DNA of 64,000 nt from Gammaproteobacteria bacterium. Lineage in GTDB: Bacteria > Pseudomonadota > Gammaproteobacteria > Nevskiales > Nevskiaceae. Under the pieces are notes generated by a model, which saw nothing but the letters and a program-made list of their open reading frames with translations, ran no database searches and was not told where the DNA came from. The translations under genes were made by a program, and so were the position numbers. Of the stretch, positions 22,063-30,236 are shown one piece after another. Each line of letters starts with the position of its first letter. Within the stretch, counting starts at the first letter, position 1. Location of the stretch: contig JAGWMX010000002.1 in NCBI GenBank assembly GCA_028871525.1, positions 4,940-68,939 of the forward strand. The letters run 5' to 3'.

Positions 22063-23202
22063 TCACGCAAGCGTTTTTTCGTAGACGCGATAAGTCTTGT
22101 AGGGAAGCCCGCCCAGCGACTCGTTGATACGCCGCATCGGCAGATTGTCTTCCAGAATCCAGGACAGTTCGACCTGGCGGATGCCGCGCTTTTTCGCGGT
22201 CTTGCGCATCGCGTCGATGATCAGGAACGGCGCCAGACTGCCGACGAGACCGCCGGCGAGGCTGCGCTTGACGCCCATCAGCGGCACGCGCGCGGTTCTG
22301 GTACCGCGAACCTTGAGCCGCCACAGCAGTTTAATCCAATTGAACGGCAGCAACCTGCCGTTCAGATCGGCGATGGCCTCGTTGAGATTCGGCAGCGTGA
22401 TGCCGAAACCCACCGGTTCGCCCCGCATTTCGACGATCGCCACCAGTTCCGGATCCAGCAGCGGTTTCATCGATTTGGCCATGTGGCTGACCTCGGCGTC
22501 GGTCAGCGGCACAAAACCCCAGTTGCCGGCCCAGGCGTCATTGAACACGGAAGTGATCGCGACGATCTCTTCGTTGTAGCGGCGCAGGTCGAGGTGACGG
22601 ACCGTCAACTCGGGGGGGCGGGGCCGGTCGATTAGCGTGCGCGCCGACAGCGGCAGATCGTGATCCATGTCGTAAAGATAGGCGATCACGTCCTTGGCCT
22701 TGGCGTAGCCTTGCGCCTCCACGCGCGGACCGACGTAAGCTTTGTCGTGCCCCATCAGCAACATCGGCGGCGAACCGAAACCGTCGATCAGCAAGCCGGT
22801 CTCTTCGTTGATCGACAGGTTGAACGGCCCCAACACACGGCGACGGCCGCGCTGCCTGAGCCACTGCTCCGCAGCCGACAACAACGCGGCAAAAACACTC
22901 GAATCATCCTCCGCCGCAATCAATCCGAAATGTCCGTCGGCCGGGTTCCGGGCCAGCCGGTCGATCTGGGCGCTGATGCGACCGACATCGCGACCGTCGC
23001 GACAGGCCAGCCAGAACTGCACTTCGGCATGGTGAAAAAAAGGATTCTTCCTGGGCGAAAAAGCTTCCCGGCGCTCCAGCACCAGCGGTGGCACATAGTG
23101 CGGATCGTCCGCGTGCAGGCGCATCGGCAACTTGATGAAACGATCCATCTCGGCGCGCGTACGCACCGGCACGATGTCTATGGCCGCGGATTCAGCAGTC
23201 AC
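22063..23202 (-). CDS. Large GNAT-fold N-acyltransferase-like protein (candidate bacterial ceramide synthase-like enzyme)
   Basis: 379 aa. The N-terminus IVPVRTRAEMDRFIKLPMRLHADDPHYVPPLVLERREAFSPRKNPFFHHAEVQFWLA..GRISAQID is typical of a widespread family of about 380-aa GNAT-like proteins. It is the last gene of the co-directional lipid operon. Confidence 0.6.
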   Translation of the reverse strand: MTAESAAIDIVPVRTRAEMDRFIKLPMRLHADDPHYVPPLVLERREAFSPRKNPFFHHAEVQFWLACRDGRDVGRISAQIDRLARNPADGHFGLIAAEDDSSVFAALLSAAEQWLRQRGRRRVLGPFNLSINEETGLLIDGFGSPPMLLMGHDKAYVGPRVEAQGYAKAKDVIAYLYDMDHDLPLSARTLIDRPRPPELTVRHLDLRRYNEEIVAITSVFNDAWAGNWGFVPLTDAEVSHMAKSMKPLLDPELVAIVEMRGEPVGFGITLPNLNEAIADLNGRLLPFNWIKLLWRLKVRGTRTARVPLMGVKRSLAGGLVGSLAPFLIIDAMRKTAKKRGIRQVELSWILEDNLPMRRINESLGGLPYKTYRVYEKTLA

Positions 23203-23553
23203 TTGGCTCTGCTCTCCATATCACGCCGGGAACCGGCAGCGGCAGAACGCCGCCCAGCCCGCATCGTTGCTCCAATCCCATCCCCATCCAAAATCGGCAC
23301 GCATGGCTGGCAGTGAACCGTTGCCGGCTCACACCGGCCAGCATCCGGCGGGAACGACCGTGATCCCCACTGCCCACCGACCGGCGTCGCCTCACGGACA
23401 GCCGAGCCGGAGCGATACGTCACATTGGCAATGTGGTTTCCGGGCCAGCTTGTCCGGAATTTTCCGTCGCCGCTGCGCGCCGCGACGCGGCACGTATTTG
23501 CGGCTCGCCGAGCCGACATCGCCCCCATCCTGATGTTGCCGCCAACGGGCGTT

Positions 23554-24774
23554 TTAACCTGCCGCCACGGCACGCATTTGCGGCCACACCAGACCAAGCT
23601 CACCGCCGATACGCGCGAACGCCTCGATCGCCCTGTCGATCTGCTCGGCGCTGTGCGCCGCGCTGACGCTGGCGCGCAGCAGCGGGTGGTTTGACGGCGT
23701 TGCCGGCGGCAACGCCAGATTCACATATATGCCGCTGTCCAGCAACGCATTCCAGAAACTCACCGCGACCTCGCGCGATTCCAACGCCACTGCGACCACC
23801 GGACTGACGTTCGGCCCGACGTCGAAGCCCAACCGGCTCAGTCCGTCATAAAGACGTTTCGCATTGGCGCCGACCCGGGCACGTAACCCGGTGTCCACGG
23901 CCAGGCGCGACAGCGCACAGCGGGTTGAGGCGATCACCGCCGGCGGCAGCGAGGCCGTGAACATGTAAGGCCGGCACACCAGACGCAGCAAGTCGAAATC
24001 GTCGACGTTGGAGACGCAGAAACCGCCGACACTGCCGAGACTCTTGGAGAACGTGCCGACGACGAAATCGACCTGGTCCTCGACACCGACGGCTTCGGCC
24101 AGACCGCGGCCGCGCTCGCCGAGCACGCCCATCGAATGCGCCTCATCGATCATCAAATCAGCACCGTACTGGCGCGCGACGGCGGCGATCTCCTGCAGCG
24201 GCGCAACATCGCCACGCATCGAGTAAATGCCTTCGACCACCACCAGCTTGCCACCCCGCCGTCCTTCCAAGCGCCGCAGGCGCTTGCGCAGATCCTCCGG
24301 ACTGTTGTGTCGAAAACGGATCACCTCCGCCTGGCCCAGACGCGCACCATCGTAAATGCTGGCGTGGCTGTCGGCGTCCAGAATCAGATGGTCGCCGCGA
24401 CCGACCAGCGTCGACAGCATGCCCAGATTGGCCTGATAGCCGGTGCTGAACACCATCGCGTGCCGTCGACCGAAAAACGCGGCCAGATCGGCTTCAAGGG
24501 AGCGGTGATCGGCATAATTGCCGTTGGCCACGCGCGAGCCGGTGGTGCCGGTACCATGGTGCAGCGCCGCCTGCCGCGAAGCCTCGATACATTCGGCATC
24601 AAAGGTCAGGCCAAGATAGTTGTTGGTTCCGAGCAGGATGGTCGGACGGCCATCCAGAACCCCCTCGGTGGCCGACAGGATCTCGTCGAACGTGACCGCG
24701 AACGGGTTGCGTCCGGTCGCCGCCAGTGCTTTGAGCTGCGGCTTCACCGACGCAAATTTATCCAGCAGACTCAT
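23554..24774 (-). CDS. Alpha-oxoamine synthase family PLP enzyme (serine palmitoyltransferase / 8-amino-7-oxononanoate synthase-like)
   Basis: 406 aa with the PLP-Lys context GTFSKSLGSVGGF. Its start overlaps the ACP stop (ATGA). Confidence 0.8.
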   Translation of the reverse strand: MSLLDKFASVKPQLKALAATGRNPFAVTFDEILSATEGVLDGRPTILLGTNNYLGLTFDAECIEASRQAALHHGTGTTGSRVANGNYADHRSLEADLAAFFGRRHAMVFSTGYQANLGMLSTLVGRGDHLILDADSHASIYDGARLGQAEVIRFRHNSPEDLRKRLRRLEGRRGGKLVVVEGIYSMRGDVAPLQEIAAVARQYGADLMIDEAHSMGVLGERGRGLAEAVGVEDQVDFVVGTFSKSLGSVGGFCVSNVDDFDLLRLVCRPYMFTASLPPAVIASTRCALSRLAVDTGLRARVGANAKRLYDGLSRLGFDVGPNVSPVVAVALESREVAVSFWNALLDSGIYVNLALPPATPSNHPLLRASVSAAHSAEQIDRAIEAFARIGGELGLVWPQMRAVAAG

Positions 24775-25031
24775 GTCCGCGCCTCCTGCTGAGTCAGCGC
24801 CGCGACCGTGGCCACCAGATCGTCAACCGTTTCGACTTCGGCGATCCGCTCCAACGGCATCGAAATATCGAATTCCTCTTCCAGCGCAAGAATGAAATTC
24901 ATCACCGCCAGCGAATCGATCTCCAGATCACGCACGATATGCGTGTCACCGTTGATTTCGATCGAGCGCGAAGAAGCGGCGGCCAGGCCACTGACGATAC
25001 GAGCGCGAATATGTTCCAACTGATTCGACAT
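24771..25031 (-). CDS. Acyl carrier protein
   Basis: 86 aa with the phosphopantetheine attachment motif LEIDSLAVMNF (DSL). Confidence 0.8.
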   Translation of the reverse strand: MSNQLEHIRARIVSGLAAASSRSIEINGDTHIVRDLEIDSLAVMNFILALEEEFDISMPLERIAEVETVDDLVATVAALTQQEART

Positions 25032-25155
25032 GGGTATCCATAATATTCAGAAGAGATAAAAGCGACTACTCGGACATCCCTGGCGGTTGAAAGAGGGTTA
25101 AAAAACCGAGCCAGGATGCAAAAGATACCGGTTTGTCACGCACTTGTCACAAGAA

Positions 25156-26136
25156 TCAGCACGTTGGCGCGGGCGGCAGCCAGCCCGCCTTGCGGTACCA
25201 GGCCACCGCATCGGCGAAACCGGAATCCAGATCGTAGCGCGCCTGCCAACCCGCCGGTGTTATCCGCTCGGCTTCGGACACCGTCCAGTCGGGATGGCGC
25301 AGCTCACGGAGTTTCTGCGAAGTCAGCATATTGATTTTCCCGAACCGGCACGCGGCGTCGCCCGCCGCAGCGATACCTTTGAGCACAGCCGCCGGCAACC
25401 GCACCAGCTTTGGCGCCGGGTTGCCAACCGCGCGTGCAGCGGCCAGCAGGATCTCGCGCCAGGAATAGCCCTGCGCACTCGCGTCCGCGATAGCGGCCAC
25501 GATGCCGCTGGGCGAAGTCCCGGCCAGCGTCGCGATCGCCCGCGCCAGGTCGCCAACGTGAATCGCCGCCGCGCGCGCCGACGCCGGCGCCGGGATCGGA
25601 ACGACGCGGTGACGCGCAAGCTGAAAAAACACCAATGTCTCGCGATCGCCCGGACCATACACCGCCGGCGGCCGCAGCACCGTGACCTGGGGCCCGAGCA
25701 TCGCCAGCGCCTGATCTTCGCCGGCACGTTTGCTGGCGGCGTAGTCGGAAAGCCGCGGCTGTCGCGCGGCGAGGCTGGATATCAGCAGGAAATGTGCATG
25801 CGCGGCGTGTTCGCGCACGGCGGCGGCCAACGCGCCGGTACCGTCACGGTTGGCCGCGAAAAAGAGCGCGCGCGACGGCGCCTTGATCAACCCCGCCAGA
25901 TGAATCACCACCTGCGCGCCGTCGACCAGCCGCGACAGTGCGGCGCGATCGCCGAGATCGCCCGGCACCATTTCGAGGCGCAGCTCCTGCCAGCGGGGAT
26001 CGGCAGGTTCGCTGCGCACCAGCGCACGCACGCGATAGCCGGCTTCGAGCAGCGCAGCGACGACGTGGCGGCCGATAAAGCCGGTGGCTCCGGTGACCGC
26101 CGCCAATGGTTTCGCGTCAGACCGAGACAGCGACAT
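25156..26136 (-). CDS. NAD-dependent epimerase/dehydratase family (extended SDR) reductase
   Basis: Start taken at the ATG at 26136 (MSLSRSDAKPLAAVTGATGFIGRHVV, Rossmann GxxGxxG). It overlaps the FAAL stop by 20 nt. Confidence 0.75.
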   Translation of the reverse strand: MSLSRSDAKPLAAVTGATGFIGRHVVAALLEAGYRVRALVRSEPADPRWQELRLEMVPGDLGDRAALSRLVDGAQVVIHLAGLIKAPSRALFFAANRDGTGALAAAVREHAAHAHFLLISSLAARQPRLSDYAASKRAGEDQALAMLGPQVTVLRPPAVYGPGDRETLVFFQLARHRVVPIPAPASARAAAIHVGDLARAIATLAGTSPSGIVAAIADASAQGYSWREILLAAARAVGNPAPKLVRLPAAVLKGIAAAGDAACRFGKINMLTSQKLRELRHPDWTVSEAERITPAGWQARYDLDSGFADAVAWYRKAGWLPPAPTC

Positions 26137-27859
26137 CACAATCGTCGAACGCGCCCCGGAGATAGAGCTGTTTGGCCTTGGAACGGCTGAGTTTGCCGGA
26201 GGAGGTCTGCGGCAAGGTTCGCGGCGGTACCGGAACCACGCGCGCGACGACACCATGACGGGAACGCAGCACGCCGCCCACCGCCTCCCGCAGTGCCTCG
26301 CGCGCGCCCGGATCGCTGCTGCGGCATTCGAACAGCACTACGACTTCGTCGGCCGAGTGACCCTCGACCGAGAACGCCGCGATACCCCCTCTGCGCAGTG
26401 CCTCGATCTCCGTTTCGGCAGTCCATTCAAGATCCTGCGGCCAGATATTGCGACCGTTGAGCATGATCAGATCTTTTGCGCGCCCGGTGATGACGATCTC
26501 GCCATCGTGCAGATAACCAAGATCGCCGGTATTCAACCAGCCGTCGGACGACAGCACCCGCGCGGTCTCTTCCGGTTCGCCAAAATATTCCCGCATCAGG
26601 CTCGGGCCACGAACATGCAGCACGCCGACTCGACGCTCCGGCAGCGCCCGGCCGCTGTCGTCGCGCACTTCCACCTCGTGGCTCGGGAGAATTGGGCCGC
26701 AGTGCACGAATTCGCGGACGCGGCCGGTGGCGCCGTCTTCCGGCGGGTAAGCGACATGCTCCCGCTCGAGCCGCTCGGTGTCGACACGATCAATCCGCAG
26801 ACCGGCGTCGAGCGGCGCGAATGCCAGCGCCAGCGAGGCTTCCGCCATGCCATAGCTTGCGACGAAAGCGGTACGCCGGAAACCGCAGGCAGCGAAAGTT
26901 TCCGAGAATTGCTTCAGCAGATGCGGCCGGATCATGTCGCCGCCTATGCCTGCAACCCGCCAGCTCGACAGATCCAGCCCCGGCGGCAGGCCGCGCTCGG
27001 CCCGGCGCACGCACAGCTCGTAGCCGAACGACGGACTGTAGGCCAGCGTCGCGCGGTTGCGCGAAATCAGCTCCAACCACAGCAGCGGCCAGCGGGCGAA
27101 ATCGCGCGCGGGCAGAAGATCCACAGACATCTGACGGGTGATCGGCGTCAACAGGAAACCGACCAGACCCATGTCGTGGTACATCGGCAGCCAGCTCAGG
27201 CAGCGATCGTCGGCTCCCGCGCGCAGTCCGTTAGTGATGATGTTGCCGGTATTGGCAATCACCGCACGATGGGTCACCGCGATGGCCCGCGGGAAGCGGG
27301 TGCTGCCGGAGGAAAACTGCAGGTATGCCAACCGGTCGGCGGCCGGCTCCGGCAACGCCGTCGGCACCTTCGGCGCCTGCGGCAGATGCGCCGGCACACC
27401 GACGAAGACGAGTTTCAGACCGGCGCATGCCTCCTGCACCCACGCGTCCAGTGACGCCGGCCCCAGCACGGCGGCTGCGTCGGCTGCCAGAACCATGCGC
27501 TGCAGATGCTCCAGGTAGTGCTTGCGTCCGCCCAAGGCAGCGGGTAGCGGCAACGGCGCCGGCACCAAACCGGCGTACTGGCAGGCGAAGAATGCGCGCG
27601 CAAAGTCGCCGTCCGTTTCGGCCACCAGGCCAACCCGTTGTCCGGGAGTCAAGCCCGCGGCCAACAGACGCTGCGCCCAATTCCGCGCCTGATCGCGCAA
27701 CTGGCGGTAGCTCACCGCTTCCACCAGCTCGCCGCGGCCGGAATAGAAATTGAGCCCGGTGCGCCCCAGGGCGGCAAAATCGAGCGCCTGCGTCAACGTG
27801 GTGAACCGCGGAGTCACGTCGGCTCTAATCCCGCTGCAGGTGGGCGTAATTTGGGTCAT
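26117..27859 (-). CDS. Fatty acyl-AMP ligase / acyl-ACP synthetase-like adenylating enzyme
   Basis: 580 aa with AMP-binding signatures (YLQFSSGSTRFPRAIAVTH, NTGDLGYL), FAAL-like. Confidence 0.8.
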   Translation of the reverse strand: MTQITPTCSGIRADVTPRFTTLTQALDFAALGRTGLNFYSGRGELVEAVSYRQLRDQARNWAQRLLAAGLTPGQRVGLVAETDGDFARAFFACQYAGLVPAPLPLPAALGGRKHYLEHLQRMVLAADAAAVLGPASLDAWVQEACAGLKLVFVGVPAHLPQAPKVPTALPEPAADRLAYLQFSSGSTRFPRAIAVTHRAVIANTGNIITNGLRAGADDRCLSWLPMYHDMGLVGFLLTPITRQMSVDLLPARDFARWPLLWLELISRNRATLAYSPSFGYELCVRRAERGLPPGLDLSSWRVAGIGGDMIRPHLLKQFSETFAACGFRRTAFVASYGMAEASLALAFAPLDAGLRIDRVDTERLEREHVAYPPEDGATGRVREFVHCGPILPSHEVEVRDDSGRALPERRVGVLHVRGPSLMREYFGEPEETARVLSSDGWLNTGDLGYLHDGEIVITGRAKDLIMLNGRNIWPQDLEWTAETEIEALRRGGIAAFSVEGHSADEVVVLFECRSSDPGAREALREAVGGVLRSRHGVVARVVPVPPRTLPQTSSGKLSRSKAKQLYLRGAFDDCDVAVSV

Positions 27860-28571
27860 CTAACCTTTCTCTTTGCAAATTTGTGTTAGAACCCACGCCG
27901 AAACAGACTGATTCCCTGACCAATTCCCAACGCCGCCTCTTGTAATGATACCACTTTGAACGGCGCTGACTGCTGATGTTGGACGGCCGCAACCTGTTCG
28001 TGCACCACGGCCGGCGCGCGGGCGGGCGGGCGCGATCGCAGCGGAGACAAGCAGCGAGACCGCCGGCAGATCTGCTGAAGTGCCCGCCGCCGGCTGATTT
28101 CGGGCTGTGGCGCCAATGCGCGCCGTAACCTGCCGGTCGCGCACTTGTCCACCACTTCGCATTACGCCTGCGGTGCCGTTTCGCCTGCGCGCCGTAGATC
28201 GCGATCTTCATGCCTTGGCCCCAGCCCTGGTCTCACAGCCCGAAACGCCCTGGAACTGTGCACATCCACCATGTGCACACGCAACCGATCGGTGTCCGGC
28301 CACGTGCGTCGAGATGCTAAGCATAAAACGACTCGACCGCCGCCGACAGCGCCGGCGGGATCAGCCGCTGAAACATATGGATATCGGTTCAGCCCCCTGG
28401 CCCAGGCAATGCGGCGTTTGACCATGCGTCAGGCAAATAAATCCAGCGCTTGCATGGCGTATGCGCCGAGGCCCGGCACCTCGTCATGACAAGCCCGGCG
28501 CCGGTCGTCGATAATGCGCGCCCGCCGCGTTCCCCGCGCGCACCCATCCGTTCTTCCCAATCGGCACCGCG

Positions 28572-30236
28572 ATGAGCCAATACGTTTACACCATGAACCG
28601 GGTCGGCAAGACCGTCCCGCCGAGGAAGGAGATTCTTCGCGACATCTCCCTGTCTTTCTTTCCCGGCGCCAAGATCGGCGTGCTGGGTTACAACGGCGCC
28701 GGCAAGTCGACGCTGCTGCGCATCATGGGCGGCATCGACCAGGATTATCACGGCGAGGCGCGGCCGCAGCCCGGCATCAAGATAGGTTACCTGCCGCAGG
28801 AGCCGCAGCTCGATCCGACCAAGAACGTGCGCGGTAACGTTGAGGAAGCGTTGGCCGAAATCAAAGCGGTCCAGGCCGAGCTGGAACAAGTGTACGCCGC
28901 CTACGCCGAGCCCGATGCCGACTTCGACAAGCTGTCGGCGAAACAGCAGGCGCTGGAGGCGAAGATCGCTGCCGCCGATGCGCACAACCTCGAGGTGATG
29001 CTCGACAAGGCGGCCGAAGCCTTGAGCCTGCCGTCCTGGGATGCGCGGATCGAGCAGCTGTCCGGCGGCGAGCGCCGGCGGGTGGCGCTGTGCCGGCTGC
29101 TGCTGTCCAAGCCGGACATGCTGCTGCTCGACGAGCCGACCAACCATCTCGACGCCGAGTCGGTGGCCTGGCTGGAAAAGTATCTGCACGATTTTCCCGG
29201 CACCGTCGTCGCCGTCACCCACGACCGCTACTTCCTCGACAACGTCGCCGGCTGGATCCTGGAGCTGGACCGCGGCCACGGCATCCCCTGGCCGGGCAAC
29301 TACTCGTCCTGGCTGGAGCAGAAGGAAAAGCGCCTCGAGCAGGAGCAGAAATCCGAGGACGCGCACATCCGGGCGATGAAGGAAGAGCTGGAGTGGGTGC
29401 GCAAGAACCCCAAGGGCCGGCAGGCCAAATCCAAGGCGCGCGTCAAGGCCTACGAGGCGCTGGCCAGCCAGGAATTCCAGAAGCGCGCCGAAACCCGGGA
29501 ACTGTATATCCCGCCCGGTCCGCGGCTCGGCGAACTGGTGATCGAGGCCGACGACCTCAAGAAAGGCTACGGCGGCCGTTTGCTGTACGACAATCTGAGC
29601 TTCCGCGTGCCGCGCGGCGCCATCGTCGGCATCATCGGCGCCAACGGCCGCGGCAAAACCACATTGTTCCGCATGCTGATCGGCGACGAGAAACCGGACG
29701 GCGGCACATTGCGGATCGGCGACACAGTGAAGTTCGCCTATGTCGACCAGAGCCGCGACGCGCTGGACGGCGGCAAGACCGTGTGGCAGGAGATCAGCGG
29801 CGGTCTGGACATCATCCGCGCCGGCAGCTTCGAGATGCCCAGCCGCGCTTATCTCGGCCGCTTCAATTTCAAGGGCGAGACCCAGCAGAAACGCATCAGG
29901 GATCTGTCCGGCGGCGAGCGCAATCGCGTGCACCTGGCCAAGCTGTTGCTCGGCGGCGGCAACGTGCTGCTGCTCGACGAGCCGACCAACGATCTGGACA
30001 TCGAAACCTTGCGCGCGCTGGAAGAAGCGCTGCTGGACTTCGCCGGCTGTGCGCTGGTGATTTCGCACGATCGCTGGTTCCTGGACCGCATCGCCACTCA
30101 CATCCTGGCGTTCGAGGACTCGGGCGAAATCGTCTTCCACGAGGGCAACTATCAGGAGTACGAGGAGGATTTCCGGCGCCGCACCGGCGGCGAGCCCGGC
30201 GTCAACCGGCGCGCACGGCACAAGAAACTGGCCTGA
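28572..30236 (+). CDS. ettA: Energy-dependent translational throttle ABC-F ATPase
   Basis: 554 aa with N-terminus MSQYVYTMNRVGKTVPP, two Walker A sites (GYNGAGKST, GANGRGKTT) and two LSGGE signatures. Confidence 0.9.
   Translation: MSQYVYTMNRVGKTVPPRKEILRDISLSFFPGAKIGVLGYNGAGKSTLLRIMGGIDQDYHGEARPQPGIKIGYLPQEPQLDPTKNVRGNVEEALAEIKAVQAELEQVYAAYAEPDADFDKLSAKQQALEAKIAAADAHNLEVMLDKAAEALSLPSWDARIEQLSGGERRRVALCRLLLSKPDMLLLDEPTNHLDAESVAWLEKYLHDFPGTVVAVTHDRYFLDNVAGWILELDRGHGIPWPGNYSSWLEQKEKRLEQEQKSEDAHIRAMKEELEWVRKNPKGRQAKSKARVKAYEALASQEFQKRAETRELYIPPGPRLGELVIEADDLKKGYGGRLLYDNLSFRVPRGAIVGIIGANGRGKTTLFRMLIGDEKPDGGTLRIGDTVKFAYVDQSRDALDGGKTVWQEISGGLDIIRAGSFEMPSRAYLGRFNFKGETQQKRIRDLSGGERNRVHLAKLLLGGGNVLLLDEPTNDLDIETLRALEEALLDFAGCALVISHDRWFLDRIATHILAFEDSGEIVFHEGNYQEYEEDFRRRTGGEPGVNRRARHKKLA

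Follow-up and report, generated by a model that had tools for sequence, protein, structure and literature searches.

The genes that make the ceramide backbone of bacterial sphingolipids have been defined experimentally in Caulobacter crescentus, where the formation of dihydroceramide depends on each of CC_1165, CC_1164, CC_1163, CC_1162 and CC_1154 (PMC9386255; PMC11324152). These five genes have been named aasR, epi (cerR), acpR, spt and aca (cerS/bcerS), and they are found in alpha-, beta- and gammaproteobacteria (PMC9386255). AasR selectively acylates AcpR in Caulobacter, and the resulting acyl-AcpR is the preferred substrate of Spt (PMC9386255), while CC_1154 has been assigned as the N-acyltransferase and the neighbouring CC_1156 and CC_1155 as LptF2 and LptG2 (PMC11324152). 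A clustered set is also listed for Escherichia coli BL21, running from yghO (ECD_02850) to spt (ECD_02854), with YghO given as the homologue of CC_1154 (PMC9386255). Here we have analysed a 64,000-nucleotide stretch of contig JAGWMX010000002.1 (the window), in which five minus-strand genes at positions 22063-27859 very probably encode the five enzymes of a Caulobacter/Rhodobacteria-type pathway to the (dihydro)ceramide backbone. The host genome (G000) is a metagenome-type assembly of 2.7 Mb in 146 contigs that is 92% complete, and the organism is described as a small-genome freshwater or soil-type gammaproteobacterium. The initial annotation of the window, made from its letters only, had spoken of a Xanthomonadales-type genome, which came close, as the genome falls in the Nevskiaceae (Nevskiales).

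Open reading frame (ORF) scanning and domain searches have revealed five intact ORFs in the order fatty acyl-AMP ligase (FAAL), short-chain dehydrogenase/reductase (SDR), acyl carrier protein (ACP), alpha-oxoamine synthase and GNAT-type acyltransferase. The first gene, an aasR-like fatty acyl-AMP ligase/acyl-ACP synthetase of 580 aa with an AMP-binding domain (26117-27859), ends at 26117 and overlaps the start of the cerR-like gene by 20 nt, given the SDR ATG at 26136. The latter (25156-26136, 326 aa) encodes an extended SDR of the NDUFA9/epimerase type (PF01370, Epimerase) and is followed by a 124-nt, AT-richer spacer (25032-25155). The acpR-like gene for a dedicated ACP of 86 aa (24771-25031; PF00550) is joined to spt (23554-24774, 406 aa) by an ATGA overlap of stop and start codon, which is seen directly in the sequence. 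A non-coding spacer of 351 nt (23203-23553) separates spt from the last gene, which starts with GTG and encodes a bcerS/cerS/yghO-like tandem-GNAT N-acyltransferase of 379 aa (22063-23202). The strand, the gene order, both overlaps and the length of the last ORF had been proposed in the initial annotation, and all of them have been borne out by the ORF scan and the sequence.

The identity of the oxoamine synthase has been approached by family models, solved structures and phylogeny. On the NCBIfam equivalog model for Spt (NF047599) the protein scores 663.8 bits against a cut-off of 500, in the range of the reference Spts of Caulobacter (678) and E. coli (600), and it remains below the cut-offs (in brackets) of the models for BioF with 327 (426), Kbl with 316 (460), ALA synthase (ALAS) with 232 (339) and the CqsA type with 207 (428). 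Its best solved relative is the serine palmitoyltransferase of Sphingomonas wittichii (2x8u, 468 bits), as compared with 248 bits for the best Kbl and ~175 bits for BioF, and the motifs GTFSKS, which holds the pyridoxal phosphate (PLP) lysine, DEAHS, DSHASIYDG and PPATP..LLR align with those of 2x8u. For the tree, the oxoamine synthase paralogues of E. coli, one Caulobacter genome, Hydrocarboniphaga and the host genome were collected and labelled via NCBIfam. The maximum-likelihood tree places the window protein inside the Spt clade (support 100/100, stem length 2.2), whereas the BioF, Kbl and HemA proteins of the same organisms, including the host's own BioF, are found outside. Hence the grouping with Spt that the initial annotation had anticipated has been obtained, and not one with BioF or Kbl. 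Within the clade, the window protein is sister to the Spt of a same-genus relative (100/99), and the Spts of Nevskiaceae and Caulobacteraceae form one clade (99/98), with those of E. coli and Immundisolibacter placed elsewhere. Identities amount to 66-68% with Caulobacter Spt (61-67% across the Caulobacter loci from the scan of species-representative genomes) and 53% with E. coli Spt. As judged from its sequence, the oxoamine synthase is a serine palmitoyltransferase, a PLP enzyme, and the PGAP annotation already uses the name spt.

The 379-aa product of the last gene of the cluster gives no Pfam, NCBIfam or PDB sequence match. An AlphaFold2 model, calculated from an alignment of 51 sequences, has shown a tandem GNAT fold with high confidence (pLDDT 95.4, pTM 0.92), and the best Foldseek matches of this model are the tandem GNATs 2wpw, 5kf1, 7q3a and MshD (1ozp) with E ~1e-16, so that the GNAT-fold label given at the outset is correct. 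The protein is 44% identical to E. coli YghO over its full length (E 8e-112) and, along residues 3-378, 55-59% identical to the product of the gene that occupies the CC_1154 position in Caulobacter, a comparison that has been made with congeners of C. crescentus CB15/NA1000 and the published gene order and not with the CC_1154 protein itself. Because the congener homologue lies directly after lptF2-lptG2, in agreement with the published map of CC_1154, the acyltransferase gene is regarded as an orthologue of cerS/bcerS, and its product is, by homology and position, a predicted ceramide synthase. The relationship to bCerS that had been suspected is thereby confirmed, and the gene is present in a single copy in the host genome. 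The family is large, with >7,900 matches in 90% clusters and 1,203 clusters of 50% identity at E<=1e-30. Its members include natural fusions: a protein of 630 aa (P0148) combines a fatty-acid hydroxylase domain (PF04116) with that of bCerS, which we count in favour of the ceramide pathway, and another of 784 aa (P0128) carries an additional N-terminal GNAT domain. Many NCBI records of bCerS/YghO homologues bear the name 'dATP pyrophosphohydrolase'; the literature searched has yielded nothing that links this name with ceramide, and as it is supported neither by fold nor by context nor by literature, it looks like an annotation error that has been passed on from record to record. In its database copy (P0002, 361 aa), the window protein begins 18 residues after the GTG start, and alignments of homologues favour the GTG.

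The three remaining proteins fit the same set. The FAAL reaches 818 bits (cut-off 600) on NF006624, 'fatty acyl-AMP ligase', and its best solved relative is PDB 3pbk, 'Fatty Acyl-Adenylate Ligase', with 487 bits. Its identities are 44% with the FAAL encoded at the spt locus of E. coli, 72% with that of a metagenomic contig (L104, see below) and 60% with the product of the gene that precedes cerR-acpR-spt in Caulobacter henricii and Caulobacter sp. ErkDOM-C; by analogy, this AasR-like enzyme is expected to charge the dedicated ACP with a fatty acid. For the SDR, the ORF lister has set the start at 26256, while the credible ATG lies at 26136, with the Rossmann motif from residue 14 onwards. The protein carries the motifs GATGFIG and YAASK, of the GxxGxxG and YxxxK types, its best PDB relatives are NDUFA9-like proteins, and it is 38% identical to the SDR of the E. 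coli locus. In the genome of Caulobacter sp. ErkDOM-C, its best match overall is the gene immediately upstream of acp-spt (273 bits, 51% identity), followed at a wide distance by a match of 74 bits and 29%. Accordingly named cerR-like, it would act as the 3-keto reductase of the sphingoid backbone. The ACP scores below all cut-offs of the equivalog models for housekeeping AcpP (~45 bits vs ~70) and shows the features of AcpR, being a small phosphopantetheine-binding protein with a DSL serine that is encoded directly upstream of spt and is distinct from AcpP. Its identities are 31% to the ACP of the E. coli locus, 55-58% to the spt-adjacent ACP of Caulobacter and 71% to that in L104.

Taken in the order of the chemistry, AasR, which is of the FAAL type, would adenylate a free fatty acid and load it onto AcpR, as is derived from the Caulobacter orthologues, and Spt would condense acyl-AcpR with L-serine to 3-ketodihydrosphingosine. 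The tandem-GNAT protein bCerS/CerS would N-acylate the amine, and the NDUFA9-like SDR (CerR) would reduce the 3-keto group to yield dihydroceramide. Which of these last two steps precedes the other is disputed (PMC11087976; PMC11324152), and the sequence does not decide it.

Regarding transcription, the description as a 'co-directional operon' has held only in its first half. All five genes are co-directional, but a single operon is not shown, as the packing is interrupted by the 124-nt spacer with its promoter-like match and by the 351-nt spacer. The former contains, at 25150-25122 of the minus strand, a pair of sigma-70-like hexamers, which agrees with the consensus at 9 of 12 positions, a consensus match only; the spacer may thus hold a promoter for acpR-spt, a gene pair that has been described as an operon in Rhodobacteria (PMC9386255). 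Probably the cluster is transcribed in two or three units, aasR-cerR, acpR-spt and bcerS, with a further internal promoter probably located in the 351-nt spacer. A regulatory RNA or a gene relic has been considered for this spacer and rejected, for it has given no Rfam match at E<=1, its predicted folding is no better than that of shuffled sequences (z-score -0.57), comparison with the genes that separate spt from bcerS in relatives has shown no similarity at either the nucleotide or the translated level, and its alignment with the corresponding spacers of contigs L104 and L107 has revealed no conserved motif. On the plus strand, opposite to the cluster, a terminator-like hairpin with a T-run is present inside the same spacer at 23438-23459, and no convincing plus-strand gene ends at it.

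In a set of 41 related genomes, 8 contain spt together with the GNAT gene and 33 lack both, and the pairs are always found on one contig and within 11 kb. Within the family Nevskiaceae the locus is carried by 8 of 25 genomes. This patchy distribution, together with the grouping of the Nevskiaceae Spts with those of Caulobacteraceae and not with those of E. coli or Immundisolibacter, forms a pattern that fits horizontal movement of the whole locus, at which the tree also hints. A scan of species-representative genomes has yielded 80 named loci, many of them from Caulobacter, and Spt is present in the flanks of many of these. The compact arrangement of the window recurs in two metagenomic contigs: L104 contains FAAL-SDR-ACP-spt, a spacer of 235 nt, bcerS, lptF2 and lptG2, and L107 contains spt, a spacer of ~205 nt, bcerS and lptF2. 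A third contig (L106) encodes a GNAT protein of 78% identity and shares the order bcerS-DUF4124-ilvA with the window. A second type of locus has been observed in a member of another genus of the family (G020), whose locus (L091, 3283-12364) has bcerS on the upstream side and then an AMP-binding::PP-binding fusion of 653 aa, a second FAAL, ACP and spt, with no SDR match within the stretch fetched. Its Spt is 51% identical to that of the window and groups with a Burkholderiales metagenome-assembled genome (100/100), and its bCerS is 67% identical, which suggests that this locus is mosaic or was separately acquired.

The genes that would act on the ceramide backbone once it has been formed show a different picture. 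No orthologues of any head-group genes of the relatives, among them those for the ceramide kinase, the CDP-alcohol transferase and the locus-type glycosyltransferase, have been found in the host genome at its present 92% completeness in 146 contigs, and the end product may therefore be ceramide with little or no modification. The housekeeping lptF-lptG pair adjoins pepA on host contig C107. A third gene of the LptF family is located on the minus strand of another host contig, unlinked to the cluster and cut by the contig end (C79:3-923, equivalent to L094:3-923); its product shares 56% and 64% identity with the LptF2 encoded after bcerS in L104 and L107, respectively. Its neighbours are an ABC-2 transporter pair and a gene of the MurA/AroA family, and the presumed partner lptG2 has not been assembled. 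Owing to the resemblance to the locus-linked LptF2, a component of export is probably retained but unlinked, so that a dedicated Lpt-type export route would probably persist with lptF2 at the edge of another contig. An earlier proposal of ours, the joint loss of the kinase and the LptF2G2 transporter, has therefore been withdrawn. In L104, which is the nearest relative contig of full length, bcerS is followed by lptF2, lptG2 and genes for a CDP-alcohol phosphatidyltransferase, an inositol-1-phosphate synthase and a MobA-like NTP transferase (L104:9208-14502), a gene set that suggests a head group of the inositol-phosphoceramide type in a proteobacterium.

Several observations weigh against the assignment as a ceramide pathway or against parts of it. 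The literature searched contains no report of sphingolipids in Nevskiales. Neither spt nor bcerS is present in one genome of the same genus (87% complete), and the locus is thus dispensable in the genus. For Caulobacter, a cytoplasmic location has been reported for Spt and bCerS and a periplasmic one, peripheral to the inner membrane, for CerR (PMC11087976). No N-terminal signal peptide is visible in the sequence of the window SDR, and the periplasmic site can consequently not be confirmed here. The two spacers, with a promoter match by consensus only, leave the operon structure unproven, and the missing head-group genes have to be judged against an assembly that is fragmented, 92% complete and without lptG2.

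Part of these observations also feeds alternative explanations. The five genes could direct the synthesis of a different alpha-amino-ketone lipid, for example one with a 1-deoxy or a glycine- or alanine-derived base, or a sulfonolipid-type capnine. The alpha-oxoamine synthase family includes enzymes of similar fold that use other amino acids, a cysteate-C-fatty acyltransferase (28eh, 196 bits) is among the PDB matches of the window Spt, and the head-group genes typical of sphingolipid loci have not been found in the host genome. Nevertheless, we consider a lipid of this kind very unlikely, as the Spt is closely related to that of Caulobacter both in identity and in its well-supported grouping, passes the equivalog cut-off and shares the LLR arginine and the other motifs with the S. 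wittichii enzyme, and as all four partner genes are orthologous to genes of the ceramide pathway. The missing kinase, CDP-alcohol transferase and glycosyltransferase genes of relatives can likewise be read as a sign of decay, in which case the cluster would be the remnant of a pathway in a shrinking genome, deprived of its head-group genes, no longer expressed or useful, and heading for deletion. Such a reading could point to the genome size of 2.7 Mb, compared with 3.4-5.9 Mb in most of the family, and to the same-genus genome without the locus. It has to be set against five ORFs that are full length in comparison with their homologues, without stops or frameshifts and with intact catalytic motifs, against the conservation of the core arrangement in L104 and L107 and of the bcerS-DUF4124-ilvA junction in L106, and against the retained orthologue of lptF2; decay is accordingly judged to be very unlikely.

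A more technical concern is that the adjacency of spt and bcerS reflects an artefact of assembly or binning, with a chimeric join that has dropped the intervening genes. The source of 146 contigs is of the metagenome type, and relatives with 4-10.6 kb between the two genes are known. However, the same junction of spt, short spacer and bcerS is seen in L104 and L107, which derive from other samples, and the full order in L104 and the junction in L107, both on independent contigs, make it unlikely that the layout was created by assembly. Furthermore, the junction of bcerS with DUF4124 and ilvA in L106 is that of the window, and the GC content is even across the cluster region, so that a chimeric join appears extremely improbable. 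Weighed against these alternatives, the five-enzyme ceramide backbone pathway remains by far the best description of the cluster.

The upstream boundary of the cluster is a divergent non-coding region of 712 nt (27860-28571) between the FAAL gene and a divergent plus-strand gene for an EttA-like ABC-F ATPase (28572-30236), which is recognised by two ABC_tran domains and an ABC_tran_Xtn domain. ORFs within the 712-nt region have no Pfam match, and a gene relic has been rejected there, because tblastx against related loci has given only scattered, short and low-scoring matches. In one relative (G014), an ORF of 586 aa with a C-terminal ABC ATPase region is located directly upstream of the FAAL gene and on the same strand (L088:2127-3887), and perhaps corresponds to CC_1166, a putative flippase of Caulobacter. 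The window cluster has no gene of this kind at its flanks. Downstream of the cluster, and on its strand, follow a DUF4124 gene and a gene for a threonine ammonia-lyase (ilvA).

As regards novelty, the expectation of an 'unrecognised' sphingolipid pathway was overstated, since the five-gene set has been published for alpha-, beta- and gammaproteobacteria (PMC9386255; PMC11324152; PMC11334938) and is clustered in E. coli. The pathway as such is already known, and no new enzyme or mechanism is revealed; slightly new are the host from the Nevskiaceae, the fully contiguous, co-directional layout that recurs in two close metagenomic contigs, the lack of head-group genes in the 92% complete genome and the position of the lptF2-like gene at the edge of another contig. 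With this locus, the bacterial ceramide pathway known from experiments reaches into the Nevskiaceae, and its compact version on a single strand lends itself, as a minimal cassette, to tests of the pathway and of the disputed question whether acylation or reduction comes first. One may go further and suppose a naturally minimised sphingolipid system, in which a five-gene co-directional cassette without head-group enzymes, and with LptF2(G2) unlinked, gives rise to a neutral, unmodified (dihydro)ceramide, a speculation that we hold to be rather doubtful at present. If true, it would represent a natural counterpart of the cpgB-minus state of Caulobacter, which yields neutral ceramide alone and makes the dedicated transporter dispensable (bioRxiv 10.64898/2026.04.12.717747), and it would provide a ready-made five-gene module for heterologous ceramide production.

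Compared with its closest relatives, the window is distinguished mainly by what lies between its genes. Other Nevskiaceae, represented by Hydrocarboniphaga sp. (G024, loci L013 and L089) and by a same-genus genome (G002, L087), possess the five core genes in the same order and on the same strand with identities of 55-75%, and in Hydrocarboniphaga DUF4124-ilvA likewise follows downstream of bcerS. In these other sampled Nevskiaceae, spt and bcerS are 4-10.6 kb apart as opposed to 351 nt, and the intervening genes, which encode a lipid kinase, a CDP-alcohol transferase, a GT4 glycosyltransferase, a metallophosphoesterase and LptF2/LptG2, are all absent at the window position. C. crescentus, with CC_1165 (aasR), CC_1164 (cerR), CC_1163 (acpR), CC_1162 (spt) and CC_1154 (cerS/bcerS, ccna_01212), employs the same five families and shares the order and orientation of aasR-cerR-acpR-spt, these four being 49-68% identical to their window counterparts in the named congener genomes. 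Upstream of spt, C. henricii and Caulobacter sp. ErkDOM-C show the window order with an ACP of 55-58%, an SDR of 49% and a FAAL of 60% identity. Unlike in the window, whose host is a gammaproteobacterium, spt of Caulobacter is located ~6.8 kb upstream of cerS on the same strand, separated from it by genes for a kinase of the diacylglycerol kinase (DAGK) type, a CDP-alcohol transferase, a metallophosphoesterase, lptF2 and lptG2, as had rightly been remarked at the outset in stating that the Caulobacter genes are not all contiguous.

The locus of E. coli strains of the B/BL21/UTI89 type is closer in its compactness. A DNA search for distant similarity has located spt in 3195 of the 5426 complete genomes of E. 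coli, where it is annotated as 'spt: serine palmitoyltransferase', and the locus (L006) comprises yghO, FAAL, SDR, ACP, spt, lptG2 and lptF2 between glcC and yghS/yghT. As in the window, the five genes are clustered in a gammaproteobacterial host, the order FAAL (ECD_02851), SDR of the epimerase type (ECD_02852), ACP (ECD_02853) and spt (ECD_02854) is kept, the junctions overlap or abut, and the proteins are 31-53% identical. In E. coli, however, yghO is divergent and located upstream of the FAAL gene, and lptG2/lptF2 follow after spt, whereas the acyltransferase gene of the window follows spt on the same strand; moreover, E. coli Spt belongs to a different sub-clade. The eukaryotic system of SPT, KDSR and CerS (Lag1) shares the overall chemistry, in which serine and an acyl thioester are converted to a 3-keto base and finally to an N-acylated, reduced ceramide, and the window Spt is homologous to the subunits of eukaryotic SPT. 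By contrast, the reductase and the synthase of the window, an NDUFA9-like extended SDR and a soluble tandem GNAT, have no relationship in fold to KDSR or to the membrane-bound CerS of the Lag1 type, and the acyl donor of bacterial Spt is, in distinction from the eukaryotic system, a dedicated acyl-ACP (PMC9386255).

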